From contig JACPAV010000017.1 of NCBI GenBank assembly GCA_016180645.1, forward strand, positions 1 to 64,000: DNA of 64,000 bases, written 5' to 3'. A program made the translations under genes and the position numbers. This document shows positions 29,136-61,466 of this stretch, piece by piece (position 1 is the first letter of the stretch; the number at the start of each line of letters is the position of its first letter). The notes under the pieces were generated by a model. That model saw nothing but the letters and a program-made list of their open reading frames with translations. It did not search any database and was not told where the DNA came from. This DNA is from Nitrospirota bacterium. Its GTDB lineage: Bacteria; JACPQY01.

Positions 29136-29208
29136 TGCCAGGGGACGGAATCGAACCGCCGACGCACGCCTTTTCAGGGCGTCGCTCTACCATCTGAGCT
29201 ACCCCGGC
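29136..29208 (-). tRNA. tRNA-Phe (anticodon GAA)
   Basis: Minus strand GCCGGGG-TA-GCTCAGATGGTAGAGC-G-ACGCC-CTGAAAA-GGCGT-GCGTC-GGCGG-TTCGATT-CCGTC-CCCTGGC-A. 7 bp acceptor, D-arm, anticodon loop CUGAAAA, T-loop GGTTCGATTCC. Confidence 0.85.
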
Positions 29209-52698: not shown

Positions 52699-52772
52699 GA
52701 CGCAGGCTGAAGCCTGCGGCTACCGGCGATGTGAATCCTCGGTAGGCGCGGGCTTTAGCCCGCGGAAGACGC
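52699..52772. repeat. REP/MITE-like palindromic element, family 2 (split copy) in the msbA - giant-gene intergenic region
   Basis: GACGCAGGCtgaaGCCTGCGGCTACC, then a 16 nt spacer, then GGTAGGCGCGGGCtttaGCCCGCGgaagacgc. The same hairpins and GGTAG/CTACC ends as the intragenic copies at 53345 and 54538. Confidence 0.65.
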
Positions 52773-52929: not shown

Positions 52930-55900
52930 ATGCGCATGACCCCGAATCGCCTCTCGCCTTTCTTTCTGCTCACGACTTGCCTCTCGCTACTCATCATTCT
53001 TTCCTCCTGCTACCGCAAGTCCTCCGACCTGCCTCCCCGCAAGAGTGCCGGGATCTCCACTTTGGTTCCCCTGGACATTGCCGTTCCGCTCTCGCCCGAG
53101 GTGGCGGCGGCCCTCAACGGGGTGGCGGACGTGGACGGACTGGCGGCGAACGTAACGGTGAACGGTTCGCCCATGGCGGAGGGAGTGCGCGGAGGTGTGC
53201 GAGGTGGAGTTCGCGGCGCCGAGCAGGGCGGGGTGCGCGGCGGAGTGAGAGGCGGCGTTCGAGGAGCGGAACAAGGGGGTGTGCGGGGAGGCGTCCGCGG
53301 CGGAGTAAGGGGGGTGCCGGAGAGGGTTGACGCGGTAGCCGCACCCTTTACGGGTGCGTCCTCGGACGCGGGCATAAAGCCCGCGCCTACCAAGAAATCC
53401 CGTCACGTAGCCAAACGTCAGGCGTCGGGCGCTCCCGAACTCGAATATTTCTTCGAAGTGTCGATTGACATCCCGCCCGAGGGCTTCCTGGATGGCAAGA
53501 ACGATTTCAAGACCACGATCCGTCCGGCGAGCGAGGACGTGCCGCTCGTGGAAGTCAGCACGCCGGTAACGATCAAGATTCCCGCGCCCTCCGAGGATGG
53601 TGCCCCTCCTGCCGCGGGTGGGGGTGGTTTCCCTCTCGAGGTTGAGGAGACCCCCATCGCCGCCAAGGACATCCAGCTTCCCAAGTCCGAGGGATCGACG
53701 GTCTCGACGCTGGTGAAGGTCTCGGTGGCCATCCAAGAGGCGAAGGCGAGCGGGGCGACGGGGAAGGACCTCTTTTCCCAGGCAATCACCAAGACGAAGG
53801 ACGTGAGTTACAAGCCCTCTGAGGAGCAGGTGAAGGCCACGTTCAAGACCCTCGCCCAGGACCTCAAGGCGACGGTGATCGCGCAGATCAAGGCGGAGAT
53901 GGCGGAGCTTGAGGCGCTGGGAGTCGAAGGCTATACGTTCTCCGTCGAAGAGCTGGAGTCTGTCGAGATCGACGTGGAGGTGGACCTGACGGCGCCCGAG
54001 ACCATCGCCTCCATCAGTCCCGACGCCGCCGAGGAGGGGGTTCCCATCACCCTCACCGCCTCCTGTTTTGACTCCTCCGAGATTCAGTCCGTAGGGGCGC
54101 GGCATGCCGCGCCCGTCCACCGCCAGGCTGAGACGGACGAGTCCTGCACCTTTGTATGTTCGGTGAACGGCGAACCCTTCGAGTACTGCGCCTCCGGCGA
54201 GTCGGTGACGCTGCCGGCGGGAACCTACACCCTTCTTGTGGCCGCGGAGGACGAGCTGGGGAACCGGGACGAATCGCCCGTCGAGATCACCTTCACCGTG
54301 GTTCCGGGAGGCTCCTTCACCTGCGGGAACGACCTCTGCGAGCCGGGCGAGAGCGAGACGACCTGTCCCGCCGACTGCCTGGCCGTCTGTGGGGATTCCA
54401 TCTGCGAGGACGACGAGACGGTGGAGACCTGTCCCCAAGATTGCGACGTGACCGCCCCTGAGACGGAGATTACCGTGAAGCCCTTCCTGATCTCGAACTC
54501 CACCTCCGCCGCCTTCGAGTTTACCTGCGCTGACGCGGTAGGCGCACCCTTTACGGGTGCGTCTTCGGACGCAGGCGTAAAGCCTGCGGCTACCTGCGTT
54601 TTCTTCTGCCAACTCGACATCGGCACCCCCGAACCGTGCACCTCGCCCTTCAGCGCCACCGTCGGCGAGGGATTCCACACCTTCGCCGTCTACGCCGAGG
54701 ACGAATCGGGCAACGCGGACGACTCCTGGGCGTACTACGACTGGACGGTGGACCTCACCGCGTCCGACACCCAGATCCTCACCGGTCCCGCCGGTTACAC
54801 GGACGAGACGACGGCCACGTTCACGTTCAAGAGCGCGGACACAGGCGTCATCGGTTTCGAGTGCTCGTTGGACGGGGGCGCCTGGCAGGGCTGTTCCTCG
54901 CCGTACACCGCCCCGTACTCCCTCGATGCGGGGGAGCACACGTTCTTCGTTCGTGCCTACGACTCGGCGAACAACCCGGATGCCTCCCCGGCGGGGTACG
55001 CGTGGACCATCGATCTGACGCCCCCCGGCGTCTTCTTCTACAGCGGTCCCGATACGGTCACGAACGCGAGCACGGCCACGTTCGACTTCGATTCGACGGA
55101 TACAAGCGTGGAGTTCTTCACCTGCTCCCTCGACGACGGTCCCGAGATCGACTGCGATGCGCCCTACACCGTTCCGGTGACGCTCACCGAGGGCCTCCAC
55201 TGGTTCATCCTGATCGGGTACGACGTGGCGGGCAACCCGTCGTCCGCCGTGGGCTACCTCTGGATCGTGGACCAGACCCCGCCCGGCGCCGTGATCGGCT
55301 ACCCCGCGAACGCCGGGAGCTACGCCTCGGCCTCCGTCACCTCCATCACCGGCACGGCGAGCGACACGGACTCCAGCGTCCTCTTTGTCGAGATCAGCCT
55401 CAAGAGCTCAGACAACTATTACTTCGATGGATCGAGCTGGGTGACCCCCGAAACGTGGCTGATGGCGGACATCACGCCCGACCCGTCTGGGACGGATACC
55501 TGGTCCTACGACCTCCTCAGTTCGCTCTCGCCCGACAGCTACACCCTCAAGGCCGTCGCCACGGACGAGGCGTACAACGAGCAGGCCACTCCGGATCAGA
55601 TCACCTTCACCATCAGCGGGGGAGGGGATACCACCGCGCCGACCTTCGCCGGCCTCGATTCCACCAGCACCGTTTCATCGACCGAGCTCAATCTTGCGTG
55701 GATCGCCGCGTCGGACGCCGTGAGTCTTCCGGGCAACATCAGCTACGACATCTGCGAATCCACCACGCAGGGCGCCTGCGTCAGCACCTTCACGGTGAAC
55801 GCCAGCGTCGTCGGCGTCACCACCACCAACCGCACTGGATTGACCCCTTCGACCACCTACTACTACGTCGTCCGCGCCCGCGACGAGGCAGCCAACACCG

Positions 55901-58134
55901 ACACGAACGTCGTCGAACTGGGCGCCGTCACCGCCGCCGGAGGCCCGCCCACCGGCGTCGCCGTGGCGATCACCAACCACCTTGGCGACCACACCTGTAG
56001 CCTATCCGCCTCAGGCGGAGTCCAATGCTGGGGACTCAACGGTAATGGTCAGCTCGGGGACGGGACAGTGGTCAACAAGTCGACTCCGGTGGCTGTGTCC
56101 ACGCTGACCGCGGCCGCCGCCGTCGCGGCTGGGCAATATCACACCTGCGCGCTGGGATCGGACGGCACGGTCCAATGCTGGGGATTCAATACTTCGGGTC
56201 AGTTAGGGGACGGGACGACGCTGAACAAGACAACCCCCGTGGCTGTCTCGACGCTCAGCGGTGTCGTCGCCTTGGCGGGAGGGAACGCTCACACTTGCGC
56301 GCTCGGCTCGGATGGCACGGTCAAATGCTGGGGATACAACACCTATGGTGGGCTAGGGGACGGAACGACGGTGAACAAATCCACGCCCGTGGCTGTGAGC
56401 CCAGTCACGAACACCTTGGCCGTCGCCCTCGCGTGCGGGAACACCCACACCTGCGCGCTCGGCTCGGACGGGACGGTCCGATGCTGGGGATACAATGGCA
56501 ACGGTCAGATTGGGGACGGGACGACAGGCGATAAATTGACTCCCGTGGACGTCTCCTCGCTCAGCGGTGCCATCGCCGTCGTGGGAGCGGACTTTCACAC
56601 TTGCGCGCTCGGCTCGGACGGCACGGTCAAGTGCTGGGGTTTCAATGGTTCGGGTCAGCTAGGGGATGGGACGACGGGCGACAAATCGACTCCCGTGGCC
56701 GTGTCCACACTGAGCGCGGCTGTCGCCGTCGCGGCAGGGGGCAATCACACCTGCGCGCTCGGCTCGGACGGCACGGTCAAGTGCTGGGGATTGAATATGG
56801 ATGGTCAGCTTGGCGACGGGACGAACGCCGATTCATCCACCCCCGTGGCCGTGTCGACGCTCAGCGATGCGATTGCCATCGCGGGGGGCCACGATCACAC
56901 CTGTTCCCTTCTTTCCGACGGCACGGTGAAGTGCTGGGGGTACAATGCCAGTGGTCAGCTCGGGGACGGGACGTCGGCGGATAAGTTCACTCCCGTCGCC
57001 GTCACCTCCCTCACCGGCACGGTCGGCGTCAAGCGCCCCGCTCCCGCCGAGGGCGGCGGGACAGGCCGGCCCTTCCGCGAAGGGATCTCGGGGCGGCACG
57101 GCTATCACGCCTGCGCACTTCTGTCGGATGGCACGGTCAAATGCTGGGGCAATACCAGTAACATCTTGGGTTATCTCGGAGACGGCACCACCGTGGGCAA
57201 CGTGACGCCGGTAGCCGTCAGCTCCTTGTCCAACGCCGTTGCCGTGGCGGCTGGATATGACCAAAGCTGCGCACTTCTGTCGGACGGCACGATCAAATGC
57301 TGGGGGCATGGCGGGTACGGCCAACTCGGGGACGGGACAACGGCGGATCAAGTGACGCCGGTAGCTGTAGCCTCAATCTCGACCGCGATCGCCGTTGCGA
57401 CGGGGGATAGCTTCGCGTGCTCGCTCCTGTCGGACGGGACGGTTAAGTGCTGGGGGTGGAACGCCTACGGCCAGCTAGGGGACGGTACGACAACCGACAA
57501 GACAACTCCAGTCGCCGTAACCTCTCTCTCGGATGCCGTGGCCATCGCGGCTGGAGGCTATTTCCACTGTTCGCTCCTTGCGGACGGAACCGTCAAGTGC
57601 TGGGGCTACAATGCCACCGGTCAGCTTGGCGATGGGACGAACACGGATGCGTCCATTCCCGTCACCGTCAGCACCCTCACAAATGCCGTGGCCGTGTCGG
57701 CCGGCTACGACCACGCCTGCGCACTCCTCTCGGACGGGACAGCCAGGTGCTGGGGCCTCAACCTGCAAGGCAGACTTGGGGATGGTACAACCATCGACAA
57801 GTCCACCCCCGTAGCCGTCAGTTCGCTGTCGAATGCCGTAGCCGTAGACGCAGGGGGCGGTCACACATGCGCGCTCCTCTCGGACGGGACGGTGAACTGC
57901 TGGGGGTACAACGGCAGCGGCACTCTCGGGGATGGGACGAGCGCGAGTAAGTCCACCCCCGTCGCCGTCAGCACCCTTACGAATGTCGTGGCCGTCATGG
58001 CGGGAGGCTACAATACCTGTTCCATTCTCTCTGACGGAACGGCTCGATGCTGGGGCCGCAACCAAGACGGCCAACTTGGCGACGGCACCACCACCAACGC
58101 CCTCACCCCCGTCCCGGTCACGAATCTTCCGTGA
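52930..58134 (+). CDS. Giant surface lipoprotein (~1734 aa): GGVR tandem repeats, multiple Ig-like domains, cysteine-rich module, ~17 RCC1 repeats
   Basis: Signal peptide with lipobox LSSCY. The 48 nt tandem repeat (GGVRGGVRGGVRGAEQ) shows synonymous variation between copies. Repeated ~90 aa domains ATFxFxSxD...CSLDGG...GxHTFxVxAxDxxGN. From ~55980 on, ~17 repeats of DGTVKCWGxNxxGQLGDGTT...TPVAV (RCC1/beta-propeller blades). Confidence 0.8.
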   Translation: MRMTPNRLSPFFLLTTCLSLLIILSSCYRKSSDLPPRKSAGISTLVPLDIAVPLSPEVAAALNGVADVDGLAANVTVNGSPMAEGVRGGVRGGVRGAEQGGVRGGVRGGVRGAEQGGVRGGVRGGVRGVPERVDAVAAPFTGASSDAGIKPAPTKKSRHVAKRQASGAPELEYFFEVSIDIPPEGFLDGKNDFKTTIRPASEDVPLVEVSTPVTIKIPAPSEDGAPPAAGGGGFPLEVEETPIAAKDIQLPKSEGSTVSTLVKVSVAIQEAKASGATGKDLFSQAITKTKDVSYKPSEEQVKATFKTLAQDLKATVIAQIKAEMAELEALGVEGYTFSVEELESVEIDVEVDLTAPETIASISPDAAEEGVPITLTASCFDSSEIQSVGARHAAPVHRQAETDESCTFVCSVNGEPFEYCASGESVTLPAGTYTLLVAAEDELGNRDESPVEITFTVVPGGSFTCGNDLCEPGESETTCPADCLAVCGDSICEDDETVETCPQDCDVTAPETEITVKPFLISNSTSAAFEFTCADAVGAPFTGASSDAGVKPAATCVFFCQLDIGTPEPCTSPFSATVGEGFHTFAVYAEDESGNADDSWAYYDWTVDLTASDTQILTGPAGYTDETTATFTFKSADTGVIGFECSLDGGAWQGCSSPYTAPYSLDAGEHTFFVRAYDSANNPDASPAGYAWTIDLTPPGVFFYSGPDTVTNASTATFDFDSTDTSVEFFTCSLDDGPEIDCDAPYTVPVTLTEGLHWFILIGYDVAGNPSSAVGYLWIVDQTPPGAVIGYPANAGSYASASVTSITGTASDTDSSVLFVEISLKSSDNYYFDGSSWVTPETWLMADITPDPSGTDTWSYDLLSSLSPDSYTLKAVATDEAYNEQATPDQITFTISGGGDTTAPTFAGLDSTSTVSSTELNLAWIAASDAVSLPGNISYDICESTTQGACVSTFTVNASVVGVTTTNRTGLTPSTTYYYVVRARDEAANTDTNVVELGAVTAAGGPPTGVAVAITNHLGDHTCSLSASGGVQCWGLNGNGQLGDGTVVNKSTPVAVSTLTAAAAVAAGQYHTCALGSDGTVQCWGFNTSGQLGDGTTLNKTTPVAVSTLSGVVALAGGNAHTCALGSDGTVKCWGYNTYGGLGDGTTVNKSTPVAVSPVTNTLAVALACGNTHTCALGSDGTVRCWGYNGNGQIGDGTTGDKLTPVDVSSLSGAIAVVGADFHTCALGSDGTVKCWGFNGSGQLGDGTTGDKSTPVAVSTLSAAVAVAAGGNHTCALGSDGTVKCWGLNMDGQLGDGTNADSSTPVAVSTLSDAIAIAGGHDHTCSLLSDGTVKCWGYNASGQLGDGTSADKFTPVAVTSLTGTVGVKRPAPAEGGGTGRPFREGISGRHGYHACALLSDGTVKCWGNTSNILGYLGDGTTVGNVTPVAVSSLSNAVAVAAGYDQSCALLSDGTIKCWGHGGYGQLGDGTTADQVTPVAVASISTAIAVATGDSFACSLLSDGTVKCWGWNAYGQLGDGTTTDKTTPVAVTSLSDAVAIAAGGYFHCSLLADGTVKCWGYNATGQLGDGTNTDASIPVTVSTLTNAVAVSAGYDHACALLSDGTARCWGLNLQGRLGDGTTIDKSTPVAVSSLSNAVAVDAGGGHTCALLSDGTVNCWGYNGSGTLGDGTSASKSTPVAVSTLTNVVAVMAGGYNTCSILSDGTARCWGRNQDGQLGDGTTTNALTPVPVTNLP
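53345..53402 (+). repeat. REP/MITE-like family 2 element inserted in-frame inside the giant gene (copy A)
   Basis: GGTAGCCGCACCCtttaCGGGTGCGTCctcgGACGCGGGCataaaGCCCGCGCCTACC. Translated as AVAAPFTGASSDAGIKPAPT. Confidence 0.7.
54538..54595 (+). repeat. REP/MITE-like family 2 element inserted in-frame inside the giant gene (copy B)
   Basis: GGTAGGCGCACCCtttaCGGGTGCGTCttcgGACGCAGGCgtaaaGCCTGCGGCTACC. Translated as AVGAPFTGASSDAGVKPAAT. Sits between two Ig-like domain repeats. Same flanking tgacgc as copy A. Confidence 0.75.
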
Positions 58135-58153
58135 ACCTGCGATCGGACGAGCC

Positions 58154-58239
58154 TTCGTAGGGGAGACTTCGTAGGGGAGCAGCTTTAGCTGCTCCCTCCT
58201 CTTGGGAGGACTTGGGAGGACCTAAAGGTCCTCCCCTAC
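58154..58239. repeat. REP/MITE-like family 1 element (with internal short duplications) immediately after the giant-gene stop
   Basis: cttcgtaggggaga + cttcGTAGGGGAGCAGCtttaGCTGCTCCCtcctcttgggaggacttGGGAGGACCtaaaGGTCCTCCCCTAC. Homologous to the element at 10-70. Confidence 0.7.
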
Positions 58240-58254
58240 AATTCATCCGCTTCG

Positions 58255-58554
58255 TTGCACTACACCTGTTCCCTTCTCTCCGACGGCACCGTCAACTGCT
58301 GGGGGTCCAATCTGTACGGCCAACTCGGCGATCGCGCTGAGCGCGACTCGCGCCCCGCTCAGCGGGACGACGGCGAACAGATTGACACCGGTTCCGGTGC
58401 CCAATCTTCCGTGACCCGTGGTCCGTTCTTCGTAGCGTCCGGTTTCATACCGGACGATCTTCCGCCCCGTGTAGAACGGGGCGCTACGAGTTCTTCTTGC
58501 GCGCCACTGGCCACGTCCTCCCTCACCCCGGTCTCCGCAACAAGCTTGCCCTGA
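58255..58554 (+). pseudogene. Diverged duplicate of the giant gene's terminal RCC1 repeat and C-terminus, disrupted by a 34-nt palindromic insert
   Basis: Begins HYTCSLLSDGTVNCWGSNLYGQLGD, a complete RCC1 blade. After the insert CGCGCTGAGCGCGactcgcgcccCGCTCAGCGGG the alternate frame reads ANRLTPVPVPNLP*, matching the real C-terminus TNALTPVPVTNLP* at 58134. Confidence 0.65.
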
Positions 58555-58580
58555 CCGGGCGGCGAGAGTAAGATCAAACC

Positions 58581-58835
58581 ATGGATACAAAGAACGGGCG
58601 TCGGATCACCGACCACCAACTCATCACGGTTTTCAAGGGCATCGATTCCAGACTGCGCAAGCTGGAGGTGCTTCCCGGCCAGGTCCAGCAACTTCACAAG
58701 CAAATGGGGCTTGTGGTTGACCGCCTGGATCGGCTCATTGAGGAAGTTGTCCGCTCCCGGACCTTCGATGCCGGCAAATCCCAGCAATTGGAGAGACGAG
58801 TCGAAGCTCTCGAGAAAAGAGCATCGGATTCCTGA
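58581..58835 (+). CDS. Small hypothetical coiled-coil protein
   Basis: 84 aa, helical heptads (LERRVEALEKRASDS). No family recognised. Confidence 0.3.
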   Translation: MDTKNGRRITDHQLITVFKGIDSRLRKLEVLPGQVQQLHKQMGLVVDRLDRLIEEVVRSRTFDAGKSQQLERRVEALEKRASDS

Positions 58836-58865
58836 GAAGCGCCCTCCCAGCCCACCGTACTCTCG

Positions 58866-60233
58866 CTACTGAATCTCAATCTTCTCCATCGCCTGCGGCA
58901 CATGGCAGACCCAGCCGAGCGTGTCCCGCAGCTTCATTCTCAGGGTGTCCGAAGCCTGCGGTTCTCCGTGGACGATGAGCGTTTGCCGCGGCGGTCTCTT
59001 GAACCCGCGCAGCCAGCGGAGAATCTCCTCCTGATCCGCATGGGCGGACAAAGCGGTCATCTCGCGGACCTCCGCGGCGACGGGGTAGTACTCACCGTGC
59101 ATCTTGATCTCGGGGGCGCCTTCGCGGAGGAGGCGTCCACGCGTTCCCGCCGCCTGGTATCCCGTTAGCAAGATACAATTCCGCCGGTCTCCAAGCCGCT
59201 CTTCCAAGTGGCGAAGCACCCGACCCCCGGTGAGCATTCCGCTGCCGGCGATCACGATCGAGCTCTTCCTCTTGTGCAGGACTTCTTCCGATTGCTGCGC
59301 GCTCCGGACCATCACGGCGGCTGAATCCAACGCCCGGCATTCGGCAGGAGAAAGTCGGTGCCACGAGGAGTGGCTCAGGAAGATTTCCGTGGCCTGGATC
59401 GCCATCGGGCTGTCGAGGTAAATCGGCAGATTGGGTATCCGATTCATCCGTTTGAGTTGGGACAGAAGGTAGAGCAGCTCCTGCGCGCGCCCGACGGCGA
59501 AGCTGGGGATGATGAGATGGCCTCGGCGCCCGGTAACCTCGTCCACCACGCGGGCTAGCGTATGAAGCGGGAGTTCCCGAACATGCCGGCGGTCGCCGTA
59601 GGTGGATTCGATCACCAGTGTGTCCGCGCGGTCCACGGTTTCGGGTGGAGGATAGATGAGAGGTTTCTGGCGTCCCAAGTCACCGGTGAAGAGGATGCGG
59701 TGTCCTTCCACATCGAGTTCGACGAGGGCGGAACCGAGGATGTGGCCGGAGGGGCGGAGCCGGAATCGAATGCCCTCGCCGATCTCCTTCCACATTCCGA
59801 GCTGCAGGGTGGCGGCCTGTTTCAGCGCCGCGCGCGCCTCCTTTTCCGTGAAGAGAGGCCGGGCGGGTCGATGCTTGGAGTACCCCATCTCGTTGGCGGT
59901 GGCCGCCTCTTCCTCCTCGATCCGGGCCGCATCGACGAGCACGAGCCGGGCGAGATCGGCCGTCGGCGGCGTGCAAAAGATGGGACCGTCGAAGCCGCCC
60001 CGGGCCAGCAGGGGCAGGGCGCCGCAATGGTCGAGGTGCGCGTGAGTCAAGATGAGGGCATGGATTGAAGGAGGGTCGACGGGGAAATCCGCCCAATTCC
60101 GCAGTCGAAGCTCCTTCAGGCCCTGGAAGAGGCCGCAATCGATCAGGACTCGTCGTCTGCCCGCGTCGACGAGGAATTTGGAGCCGGTGACGGTTCCGGC
60201 CCCGCCGAGGAAGTAAATCGAAATGCGAGCCAT
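58866..60233 (-). CDS. MBL-fold metallo-hydrolase of the beta-CASP family (RNA-metabolising, RNase J/CPSF-like)
   Basis: HAHLDHCG metal-binding motif, beta-CASP segments (motifs A-C), C-terminal MBL-RNA-binding-like region. Confidence 0.8.
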   Translation of the reverse strand: MARISIYFLGGAGTVTGSKFLVDAGRRRVLIDCGLFQGLKELRLRNWADFPVDPPSIHALILTHAHLDHCGALPLLARGGFDGPIFCTPPTADLARLVLVDAARIEEEEAATANEMGYSKHRPARPLFTEKEARAALKQAATLQLGMWKEIGEGIRFRLRPSGHILGSALVELDVEGHRILFTGDLGRQKPLIYPPPETVDRADTLVIESTYGDRRHVRELPLHTLARVVDEVTGRRGHLIIPSFAVGRAQELLYLLSQLKRMNRIPNLPIYLDSPMAIQATEIFLSHSSWHRLSPAECRALDSAAVMVRSAQQSEEVLHKRKSSIVIAGSGMLTGGRVLRHLEERLGDRRNCILLTGYQAAGTRGRLLREGAPEIKMHGEYYPVAAEVREMTALSAHADQEEILRWLRGFKRPPRQTLIVHGEPQASDTLRMKLRDTLGWVCHVPQAMEKIEIQ

Positions 60234-60341
60234 TGAACGGGGATCAGAATGATCGGAAATTCCGGACGATGCAACCCGCCCTCGAGGTCGAGCCCCGTGC
60301 CAAGCATAGTCCGAAGTTCGGCCTCCAAGATTACGGCCTGC

Positions 60342-61256
60342 CTACCGGGAGGAACGCGTGCTTTGAAATCGCATGGGGAGGATGGAGGCGCCGCGCGGAT
60401 CCTCTCGGGCGGGAGGTCCCTTGCGTTTTCGCAGATAGAGATCCCGGTCCGCTTCATGAATCAGCATTTCGGGAGTCGACCGTTTTCCGGGAGGAACCAC
60501 TCCCTGGCCGATCGTTACAGAGACCGGGGCATCGAGTGTCAGGTTCGGCTGAGCGGAATCCCGAATGGCGTTGGACATACGTTCCTTGAATTCCTCGATG
60601 CCGCTGTCGGTGGTTTCCGGAAGGAGGACAACAAACTCGTCCCCCCCGAACCGGAAAACGCTGTCCGTTCGTCGGATGGCTTCACGAAGCGCGGCCCCTA
60701 CCTGGGCAAGGACATCGTCGCCCGCGGCATGCCCGTACCGGTCATTGATCGCTTTGAAGCCGTTGAGATCCAGTAGCAGCAGGGCGAGTGAGCGATCATA
60801 GCGCTGCGCCCGCGCCAGCTCCTCCTCCAGTCTCTGTTCACAGTAGCGGCGGTTGCCGAGTCCGGTCAGAGGATCGGTGACGGAAAGTTTCTGGAGTTTG
60901 CGGTTGGCGCGGACCAATTCGGCGCGCTGCCTCCGCAGGCGATCCAAGGCGGTTCCCAGCACGAATCCGAAAAAAGAAAACGCCGCGAGGCTGCAAAGGG
61001 TAAGGTAAAGGTAGAGCGAGCTGGAGTTCTGGAGTTCGTGGGCAAGCCAGCCGCCGGTCTTGGCCCACCCTTCATGCTCTTCTACGAATCGGAGCAGCAG
61101 CCAACCCGTGGGTGCTCCCAGGCCGAGGAGTACCCCGGCCATGCCCAGACGGACGCGAAGGGACAGGGCCCGCGCGAAGCTGCGTCCCCTTGAGAAGGCA
61201 TACCCCCAGTCCACCATCCTCAGTCTCATGAACCAAAGTCTACACCCCGGCGGCAA
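60342..61256 (-). CDS. Membrane-anchored GGDEF diguanylate cyclase
   Basis: Two N-terminal TM helices, then a GGDEF domain with RFGGDEFVVLLP and an I-site-like RxxD. Confidence 0.85.
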   Translation of the reverse strand: MPPGCRLWFMRLRMVDWGYAFSRGRSFARALSLRVRLGMAGVLLGLGAPTGWLLLRFVEEHEGWAKTGGWLAHELQNSSSLYLYLTLCSLAAFSFFGFVLGTALDRLRRQRAELVRANRKLQKLSVTDPLTGLGNRRYCEQRLEEELARAQRYDRSLALLLLDLNGFKAINDRYGHAAGDDVLAQVGAALREAIRRTDSVFRFGGDEFVVLLPETTDSGIEEFKERMSNAIRDSAQPNLTLDAPVSVTIGQGVVPPGKRSTPEMLIHEADRDLYLRKRKGPPAREDPRGASILPMRFQSTRSSR

Positions 61257-61328
61257 AGAGCGGGATGATGGGGGTCACTCTTAGGGACTGATCCCGCGGC
61301 GTGTGGCGCCACGGGATCCTCGCTCCTT

Positions 61329-61375
61329 GTAGGCGCAGCCTTCAGGCTGCGTCCGCATCGCGGGCTAAAGCCCCA
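61329..61375. repeat. REP-like family 2 element (inverted orientation, lacks one terminus) in the GGDEF - acyl-CoA dehydrogenase intergenic region
   Basis: GTAGGCGCAGCCttcaGGCTGCGTC cgcatc GCGGGCtaaaGCCCC. The reverse complement aligns with 52699-52724 and 52741-52765. Confidence 0.6.
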
Positions 61376-61466
61376 TGCCACGGAGGGTATGGGACCATGA
61401 TATGTCGCCGCACCACGGATGGTGCGGCATGGAACATGGCCCGCGGCTACCGAATGTCCGAGGATT

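Follow-up and report, generated by a model that had tools for sequence, protein, structure and literature searches.

A truncated and frameshifted RCC1 gene end between two REP doublets, probably the relic of an anciently diverged gene, behind an intact RCC1 gene of a Nitrospirota bacterium

The 64-kb window considered here (the whole stretch of DNA that was analysed, 64,000 nucleotides long) contains, at positions 52930-58134 of the forward strand, an open reading frame whose translation is an RCC1 protein of 1734 aa. The reading frame closes with the stop codon TGA at 58132-58134, and the C-terminus of the protein reads ...GQLGDGTTTNALTPVPVTNLP, that is, ...LTPVPVTNLP. From a signal-like N-terminus the protein passes through Ig-like/fn3 domains into 14 RCC1 blades, recognised by Pfam as 14 RCC1 repeats (E = 3e-129) together with WD40_RLD, and it is a secreted protein, probably of the cell surface. 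The blades are grouped 7 + 7, as two propellers, with a linker between the groups at about 57022-57102. The last blade, which begins with GYNTC..., makes up with the C-terminal tail and the stop codon the segment 58006-58134 (+), and this segment is the closest counterpart of the fragment described below. The gene is preceded by genes for Skp, LpxD, LpxB and an MsbA-like ABC transporter, and it is followed by an 84-aa open reading frame, a beta-CASP metallo-beta-lactamase (MBL), a GGDEF protein and an acyl-CoA dehydrogenase, all of them ordinary genes of a chromosome. Elsewhere in the window, a tRNA gene at 29136-29208 (-) is the sole Rfam match that reaches the gathering score.

The nearest homologs of the 1734-aa protein, P0001 and P0002 of a Nitrospirae MAG, are 45-47% identical to it and match it in architecture, with seven blades past the linker and a short terminal tail that is alike (...IPTQVLNFP and ...TPVQVLYLP; another homolog ends in ...LTPVTVIGLP). 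The RCC1 gene is complete as it stands, because its homologs agree with it both in the number of blades that follow the linker and in the nature of the tail. When its C-terminal 150 aa were used as a query, the best match was 62% identical and no match came from the same organism; no exact-sequence record was found for the RCC1 protein, for the 99-aa open reading frame discussed below, or for P0001 and P0002. Two other features of the gene deserve mention. The linker (VGVKRPAPAEGGGTGRPFREGISGRHG) is GC-rich and can be folded as an outer stem with two hairpins, although this fold falls short of significance (z = -1.0). Linkers of a related kind (..ARPFR[K/E]GL..) are found in P0001 and P0002, and the segment may be an old, domesticated insertion of a hairpin element. 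In the N-terminal region, positions 53180-53320 encode degenerate tandem repeats of the type GVRGG(VRGG)n-AEQ, and runs of GVRGG/GIRGG are also present in P0001, P0002 and P0157.

Behind the stop codon of this gene, and in front of the next gene downstream (58581-58835, +; 84 aa, no Pfam family), which sets the right limit of the intergenic region, lies a second RCC1 gene end in two pieces. The first piece (58255-58331, +) reads LHYTCSLLSDGTVNCWGSNLYGQLGD and amounts to three quarters of one RCC1 blade. The second (58363-58414, +), which lies in a frame shifted by +1, reads GTTANRLTPVPVPNLP and is followed by the stop codon TGA at 58412-58414. The two are separated by an insert at 58332-58362, and the whole is bracketed by two doublets of repetitive extragenic palindromes (REPs), which we call REPIN-1 (58156-58240) and REPIN-2 (58430-58489). 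A junction spacer at 58241-58254 (AATTCATCCGCTTCG...), which resembles neither the blade nor the other flanks, joins REPIN-1 to the fragment and holds the left breakpoint of the latter. When the frame of the fragment is read further upstream it yields PTIHPLR, and it is closed by a TAG at 58186-58188. The original prediction had described these elements over the region 58135-58554, and all of them are present; its right limit, however, is the end of a frameshifted 99-aa open reading frame (58255-58554), while the fragment itself stops at 58412-58414, and REPIN-2, behind the fragment, had no place in that account.

The RCC1 nature of the fragment was assessed by looking for the core C..SDG..CWG.N..GQLGDG and by comparison with the profiles Pfam PF00415 and PF13540. 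The 99-aa open reading frame matches Pfam RCC1_2 with 27 bits against a cut-off of 22 (E = 3.8e-6), and the repaired fragment finds its best match in the window, by tblastn, at 58015-58131, with 77% amino acid identity and E = 6e-17, so that a diverged copy of the terminal repeat does lie behind the RCC1 gene, as had been proposed. When those columns are taken as conserved on which 11 or more of the 13 native blades agree, all 14 of them are identical in the fragment. Over the blade core, its best DNA match is blade 7 (80% over 70 nt). The proposal that the shifted frame past the palindrome reproduces a C-terminus of the native type is also borne out by 58363-58414, and the same type of tail is common to P0001, P0002 and P0036. 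Apart from the gene and the fragment, no RCC1 sequence was found in the 64-kb window. A homolog search with the repaired fragment returned one match, a gene end of 31 aa at the edge of a contig, with the same tail type. Between 57900 and 58900 there is no sigma-70-like promoter and no site resembling an intrinsic terminator, and the search of the same interval against Rfam gave only sub-threshold chance matches, with E of 0.5 or more.

The insert that interrupts the fragment is a GC-rich nested palindrome with the 31-mer TCGCGCTGAGCGCGACTCGCGCCCCGCTCAG; it appears as a gap in the alignment with the blade and moves the frame by +1. It holds two mini hairpins, CGCGC-TGA-GCGCG and CCCGC-TCA-GCGGG, and the hairpin takes 4-5 nt from the blade on either side, a longer imperfect stem reaching into both blade flanks. 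The palindrome had been given a length of 34 nt, which is indeed the span of the palindromic stretch (58333-58366), but the net insertion relative to the blade is 31 nt. The insert together with its flanks (58322-58372) folds with z = -3.1. It has no GTAG head. Of the marks of a MITE or miniature insertion element, namely several copies, a target-site duplication and inverted repeats at the ends, the insert shows inverted arms; no target-site duplication is visible around it, and no second copy of it exists in the 64-kb window. It may have arisen through a replication error of the fold-back or template-switch kind, or it may be a copy of a tiny hairpin element. A footprint of hairpin repair, in which the insert would be built of inverted copies of its flanks, was considered and rejected: the left junction is a perfect GCGA|TCGC palindrome, and the other matches are too weak in such GC-rich sequence.

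A REP consists, by definition, of a 5' tetranucleotide GT(A/G)G and a palindrome behind it (PMC3686654). REPIN-1 and REPIN-2 are made of such heads and palindromes and form closely spaced inverted doublets able to fold together, as published for REPs and REPINs. In REPIN-1 the inverted units are GTAGGGGAG-CAGCTTTAGCTG-CTCCC (+) and GTAGGGGAG-GACCTTTAGGTC-CTCCC (-), each with a GTAGGGGAG head and a 10-bp stem, at 58171(+) and 58239(-); the doublet is 86% identical to the one at 8-70, at the very start of the window, and thus belongs to the same family, in agreement with the claim that an element of "family 1" follows the stop at 58134. REPIN-2 consists of the inverted units GTAGCG-TCCGGTTTCATACCGGA-CG and GTAGCG-CCCCGTTCTACACGGGG-CG, with a GTAGCG head and an 8-bp stem each, at 58432(+) and 58487(-), and is of a different family. 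REPIN-1 starts 20 nt past the native stop and REPIN-2 15 nt past the stop of the fragment. As DNA, the first folds with z = -4.2 and the second with z = -6.9, and the 376-nt stretch as a whole, in what is a hot spot of REPs, is strongly structured (z = -5.2), chiefly owing to the REP hairpins. REPIN-1 is further marked by two internal duplications, one of 14 nt in tandem at a REP head (58149-58176, +; GAGCCTTCGTAGGG / GAGACTTCGTAGGG) and a perfect one of 10 nt at the start of its right-hand unit (58201-58220; CTTGGGAGGA twice), both of which look like slippage scars at hairpin borders. It is known from other systems that REPs can serve as 3' stem-loops, and by analogy the REPINs may act in this way for the RCC1 transcript. 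At present the fragment is probably no more than a part of what follows the RCC1 gene, a 3' untranslated or intergenic region that is rich in REPINs and highly structured.

Matches to the pattern of a GTAG head plus hairpin number 16 in the 64-kb window, mostly as inverted pairs, and ten of them lie inside the RCC1 gene or directly flank it. Counted by family, the GTAGGGGAG type is represented in the window by only two doublets, REPIN-1 and the one at 8-70, and the GTAGCG type by a single one. The genes adjoining REP sites in the window encode a histidine kinase, the ABC transporter, the RCC1 protein, the MBL/beta-CASP protein, the GGDEF protein and the acyl-CoA dehydrogenase; within the window, a Pfam scan of genes revealed no RAYT-like gene adjoining these sites. 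Besides the doublet at 8-70, other GTAG-headed units, of several sub-families, are a head-to-head pair at 52700-52765, just upstream of the start region of the RCC1 gene, a single unit at 54091-54114 inside that gene, and a single unit at 61329-61351, between the GGDEF and acyl-CoA dehydrogenase genes.

Two further doublets, at 53328-53391 and 54531-54594, are in frame within the RCC1 gene. They are 91% identical to each other. Their heads are of the GTAG type, their hairpins measure 7 bp, and their translation gives ..AAPFTGASSDAG[I/V]KPA.... The second lies in the loop of an Ig-like repeat, which reads FEFTCAD[AVGAPFTGASSDAGVKPAATCV]FFCQLD where sister repeats read TFTFKSADTGVIGFECSLD, and at the same place P0001, 45% identical overall, carries ..FEFSCTDPVAAPFMGASLDAGVKPAPTCSFFCQLD... 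A library-wide search with the 32-aa peptide of the in-frame doublet found one more member of the family, P0157, in which the peptide is present twice, once at a different site. These doublets recall the palindromic elements that Rickettsia carries in frame, and they may be of more interest than the gene-end fragment.

The age of the fragment can be approached by comparing it with the native gene end over 42 codons after removal of the 31-nt insert. The two are 0.69 identical in nucleotides and 0.71 in amino acids (74% in nucleotides in a local alignment), with pS of 0.64 (dS about 1.4; saturated), pN of 0.19 and dN/dS of about 0.16. These values place the pair within the range of the blade pairs of the native array, which have nucleotide identities of 0.52-0.79 and a mean pS of 0.64. 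There is a marked excess of synonymous over non-synonymous differences (Fisher p = 6e-6). Neutral decay since a local duplication would be expected to give a pN of at least 0.28-0.46, and the probability of the observed pN is 0.04 at the most conservative (lower) bound and 8e-8 at the direct (upper) bound, in a test that covers 42 codons with near-saturated synonymous sites and is marginal in its most conservative version (p = 0.04). As judged from this comparison, the separation of the fragment from the present gene end is old, and for most of that time the fragment was under purifying selection, inside a working gene. As to which of the two ends is the original one, both were set against the ends of P0001 and P0002 in an inspection by eye; out of 41 positions, P0002 agrees with the fragment at 26 and with the native end at 23, a difference too small to be decisive.

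Similarity between the two gene ends stops where the coding sequence stops. Past the two stop codons no similarity was detected, the flanks scoring 11 against 13 +/- 5 for shuffled sequence. The last 12 nt of the two ends are identical (AATCTTCCGTGA; 58401-58414 against 58121-58134), and the tail codons ahead of them differ at most third positions; this short identity may be due to chance (with a probability near 0.03 per position for sequences that are 74% identical), to a local constraint on the nucleotides or to exchange. With the insert removed, the fragment runs without an in-frame stop across the 42 codons. Since the insert is the only lesion besides the 5' truncation, and no in-frame stop has accumulated, the loss of function would be recent relative to the divergence.

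Taken together, these observations lead to the reading that we favour, with a probability of roughly 0.68, namely that the fragment is the relic of an anciently diverged RCC1 gene end, stranded by a single, relatively recent rearrangement. Its source would be either a paralog, once located here or elsewhere, or the earlier 3' end of the RCC1 gene itself, and the rearrangement would have taken away everything upstream of the last blade. It may have been the almost complete deletion of a tandem paralog downstream of the present gene; a paralogous terminus may have come in, together with its own stop codon and REPIN-1, and taken the place of the old one; or a rearrangement on a larger scale may have had one of its breakpoints within the last blade of a paralog. 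Each of these three single-event histories would account for the locus equally well. In all of them the new junction would be placed some 15 nt past the right end of REPIN-1, and the 31-nt hairpin-forming insertion would have broken the frame, either before or after the truncation. A participation of the REPs in the truncation is plausible, because the breakpoint is about 15 nt from REPIN-1 and REPIN-1 itself carries what look like slippage scars. The proposal of a recent, repeat-mediated rearrangement can thus be kept in one half: there is a disrupted partial gene end whose left breakpoint is close to a REP doublet, but the recent duplication that was part of the same proposal is at odds with a nucleotide identity of 0.69 and a pS of 0.64.

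A wider interpretation, which we regard as unlikely but worth stating, is that GTAG-headed REP doublets and small hairpin insertions actively remodel a family of giant RCC1 genes in this uncultured, Nitrospirota-like lineage. They would do so in two ways, through in-frame insertions into coding loops that are kept across species, and through breakage or deletion at gene ends, of which the truncation near REPIN-1 would be an example; the 31-nt palindrome would then be a further, previously undescribed hairpin insertion.

The possibility that the assembly itself is at fault has to be considered, given that REP doublets are, as a class, dispersed repeats. In this case the contig would have jumped at the repeated REPIN-1, and the fragment would belong to the end of another RCC1 gene elsewhere; the odd tandem duplications inside REPIN-1 could be taken in the same sense. 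Some guidance comes from a second assembly, made independently from short reads of this organism. The Logan contig SRR12113425_510248 (2.9 kb), which was reached from the MBL and 84-aa protein sequences and is the sole independent contig found, is 100% identical to positions 58478-61388 of the window, and it ends at 58478, inside the right-hand unit of REPIN-2. This end suggests that REPIN-2 is repeated or polymorphic in the sample, and it illustrates that REPs do fragment or confuse assemblies; the same contig confirms the sequence to the right of 58478 as far as 61388. The 64-kb contig, for its part, passes at least seven other REP sites without visible anomaly. The non-RCC1 sequence in front of the fragment (PTIHPLR), the in-frame stop that closes it and the frameshifting insert would make this a broken gene end at any locus. 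We therefore consider a chimera improbable. A mis-join of reads within the gene's own RCC1 array was also examined and discarded, the fragment being at most 80% identical to any blade. An orthologous locus was sought through the MBL/beta-CASP protein in genome and metagenome contigs, where full-length matches were at most 48-49% identical and showed no synteny; one partial match of 138 residues reached 62% identity.

Somewhat less probable still is that the gene end was duplicated on the spot in ancient times and that its downstream copy then decayed as non-coding DNA. In favour of this are the tandem layout on the same strand and the REP doublets behind the two stop codons, whose distances from them (20 and 15 nt) are much alike. 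Yet decay of this kind should have erased the RCC1 consensus and lifted pN to the neutral expectation of at least 0.28-0.46 in place of the 0.19 observed, and what is found is a fragment with 14 of 14 conserved columns intact, with no stop codon within it, and with no residual similarity behind its end. A variant in which the duplication reached into the downstream REPIN was dropped, as the flanks and the REPINs are unrelated.

The original prediction went further and saw in the fragment what looks like a recent local duplication of the gene end, brought about by the REPs or by recombination (unequal exchange) within the RCC1 array, that may drive length or phase variation of the protein. The arrangement does invite such a view, as the last blade and its tail occur twice, about 250 nt apart, in tandem orientation and without change of reading frame, and with repeat elements between and behind the copies. 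It is not a recent local duplication, because synonymous sites are saturated and the similarity halts at the stop codon. A recent tandem duplication is expected to leave near-identity through the non-coding flanks, which the fragment lacks; the non-coding flanks are unrelated, REPIN-1 and REPIN-2 belong to different sequence families, the copies are only 69-74% identical, and the fragment and the RCC1 gene share no exact match longer than 16 nt. As for recombination within the array, the stop codon, the spacer and the REPIN that part the blades cannot have come in through an unequal exchange. Finally, phase or length variation finds no support at this locus, where 58135-58554 contains no simple-sequence tract, a Pfam scan of the neighbouring genes reveals no invertase or other recombinase, and all that is available is a single frameshifted fragment. 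The chances of such a recent duplication are very slight.

Just as remote is the idea that the fragment serves as a silent donor cassette for gene conversion of the C-terminal blade, leading to antigenic variation in the manner of pilS/pilE: it repeats part of the 3' end of a probable surface-protein gene, has no promoter, sits beside the expressed gene and keeps all of its consensus residues, but it is one cassette only, it is frameshifted, its identity of 69-74% with exact matches of at most 16 nt makes it a poor substrate for homologous exchange, and no recombination-promoting sequence was seen at the locus.

We return, then, to a relic stranded by a single rearrangement. Described in these terms, the fragment is the non-functional remainder of a second RCC1 gene end, a conventional gene remnant that implies no new mechanism or function, and the value of the locus is mainly for annotation. 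The 99-aa open reading frame at 58255-58554 should be annotated as a pseudogene fragment and not as a gene. In addition, the locus shows REP doublets at a rearrangement junction in a little-known lineage, where they break short-read assemblies.

How the locus relates to known systems can be seen from four comparisons. With the intergenic gene remnants of other bacteria it shares the form of a 5'-truncated, frameshifted piece of coding sequence, lacking start codon and promoter and placed behind a complete gene, as well as the mark of past purifying selection that the fragment retains. It differs from them in being bracketed by two REP doublets and in carrying a palindromic insert.

Regarding the doublets, REP and REPIN elements are mobilised by RAYT transposases, as set out in Bertels and Rainey (2011; PMC3116915) and in Nunvar et al. 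(2013; PMC3686654). The doublets of this locus are alike in their GT(A/G)G heads and palindromes, in their close inverted arrangement and in their position just downstream of stop codons, and unlike in that several sub-families coexist within 64 kb, with no RAYT among the window genes scanned. The description of REPs has them almost exclusively intergenic (PMC3686654), in contrast to the doublets that lie in frame inside the RCC1 gene, and the host here appears to be a Nitrospirota-like uncultured bacterium and not a pseudomonad or an enterobacterium.

The pilS/pilE system of Neisseria is a case of antigenic variation by silent cassettes. Like a pilS cassette, the fragment lies near an expressed surface-protein gene, of whose end it is an incomplete copy that is not itself expressed. 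It departs from it in being single and frameshifted, with low DNA identity, without long identical tracts and without sign of exchange. The last comparison is with the palindromic elements of Rickettsia, which are inserted in frame in protein-coding genes, and it applies to the in-frame doublets of the RCC1 gene, outside 58135-58554. The repeat family, made of GTAG-headed REP doublets, and the lineage are different, but in both cases hairpin repeats have entered a gene in frame and are translated as part of its product.
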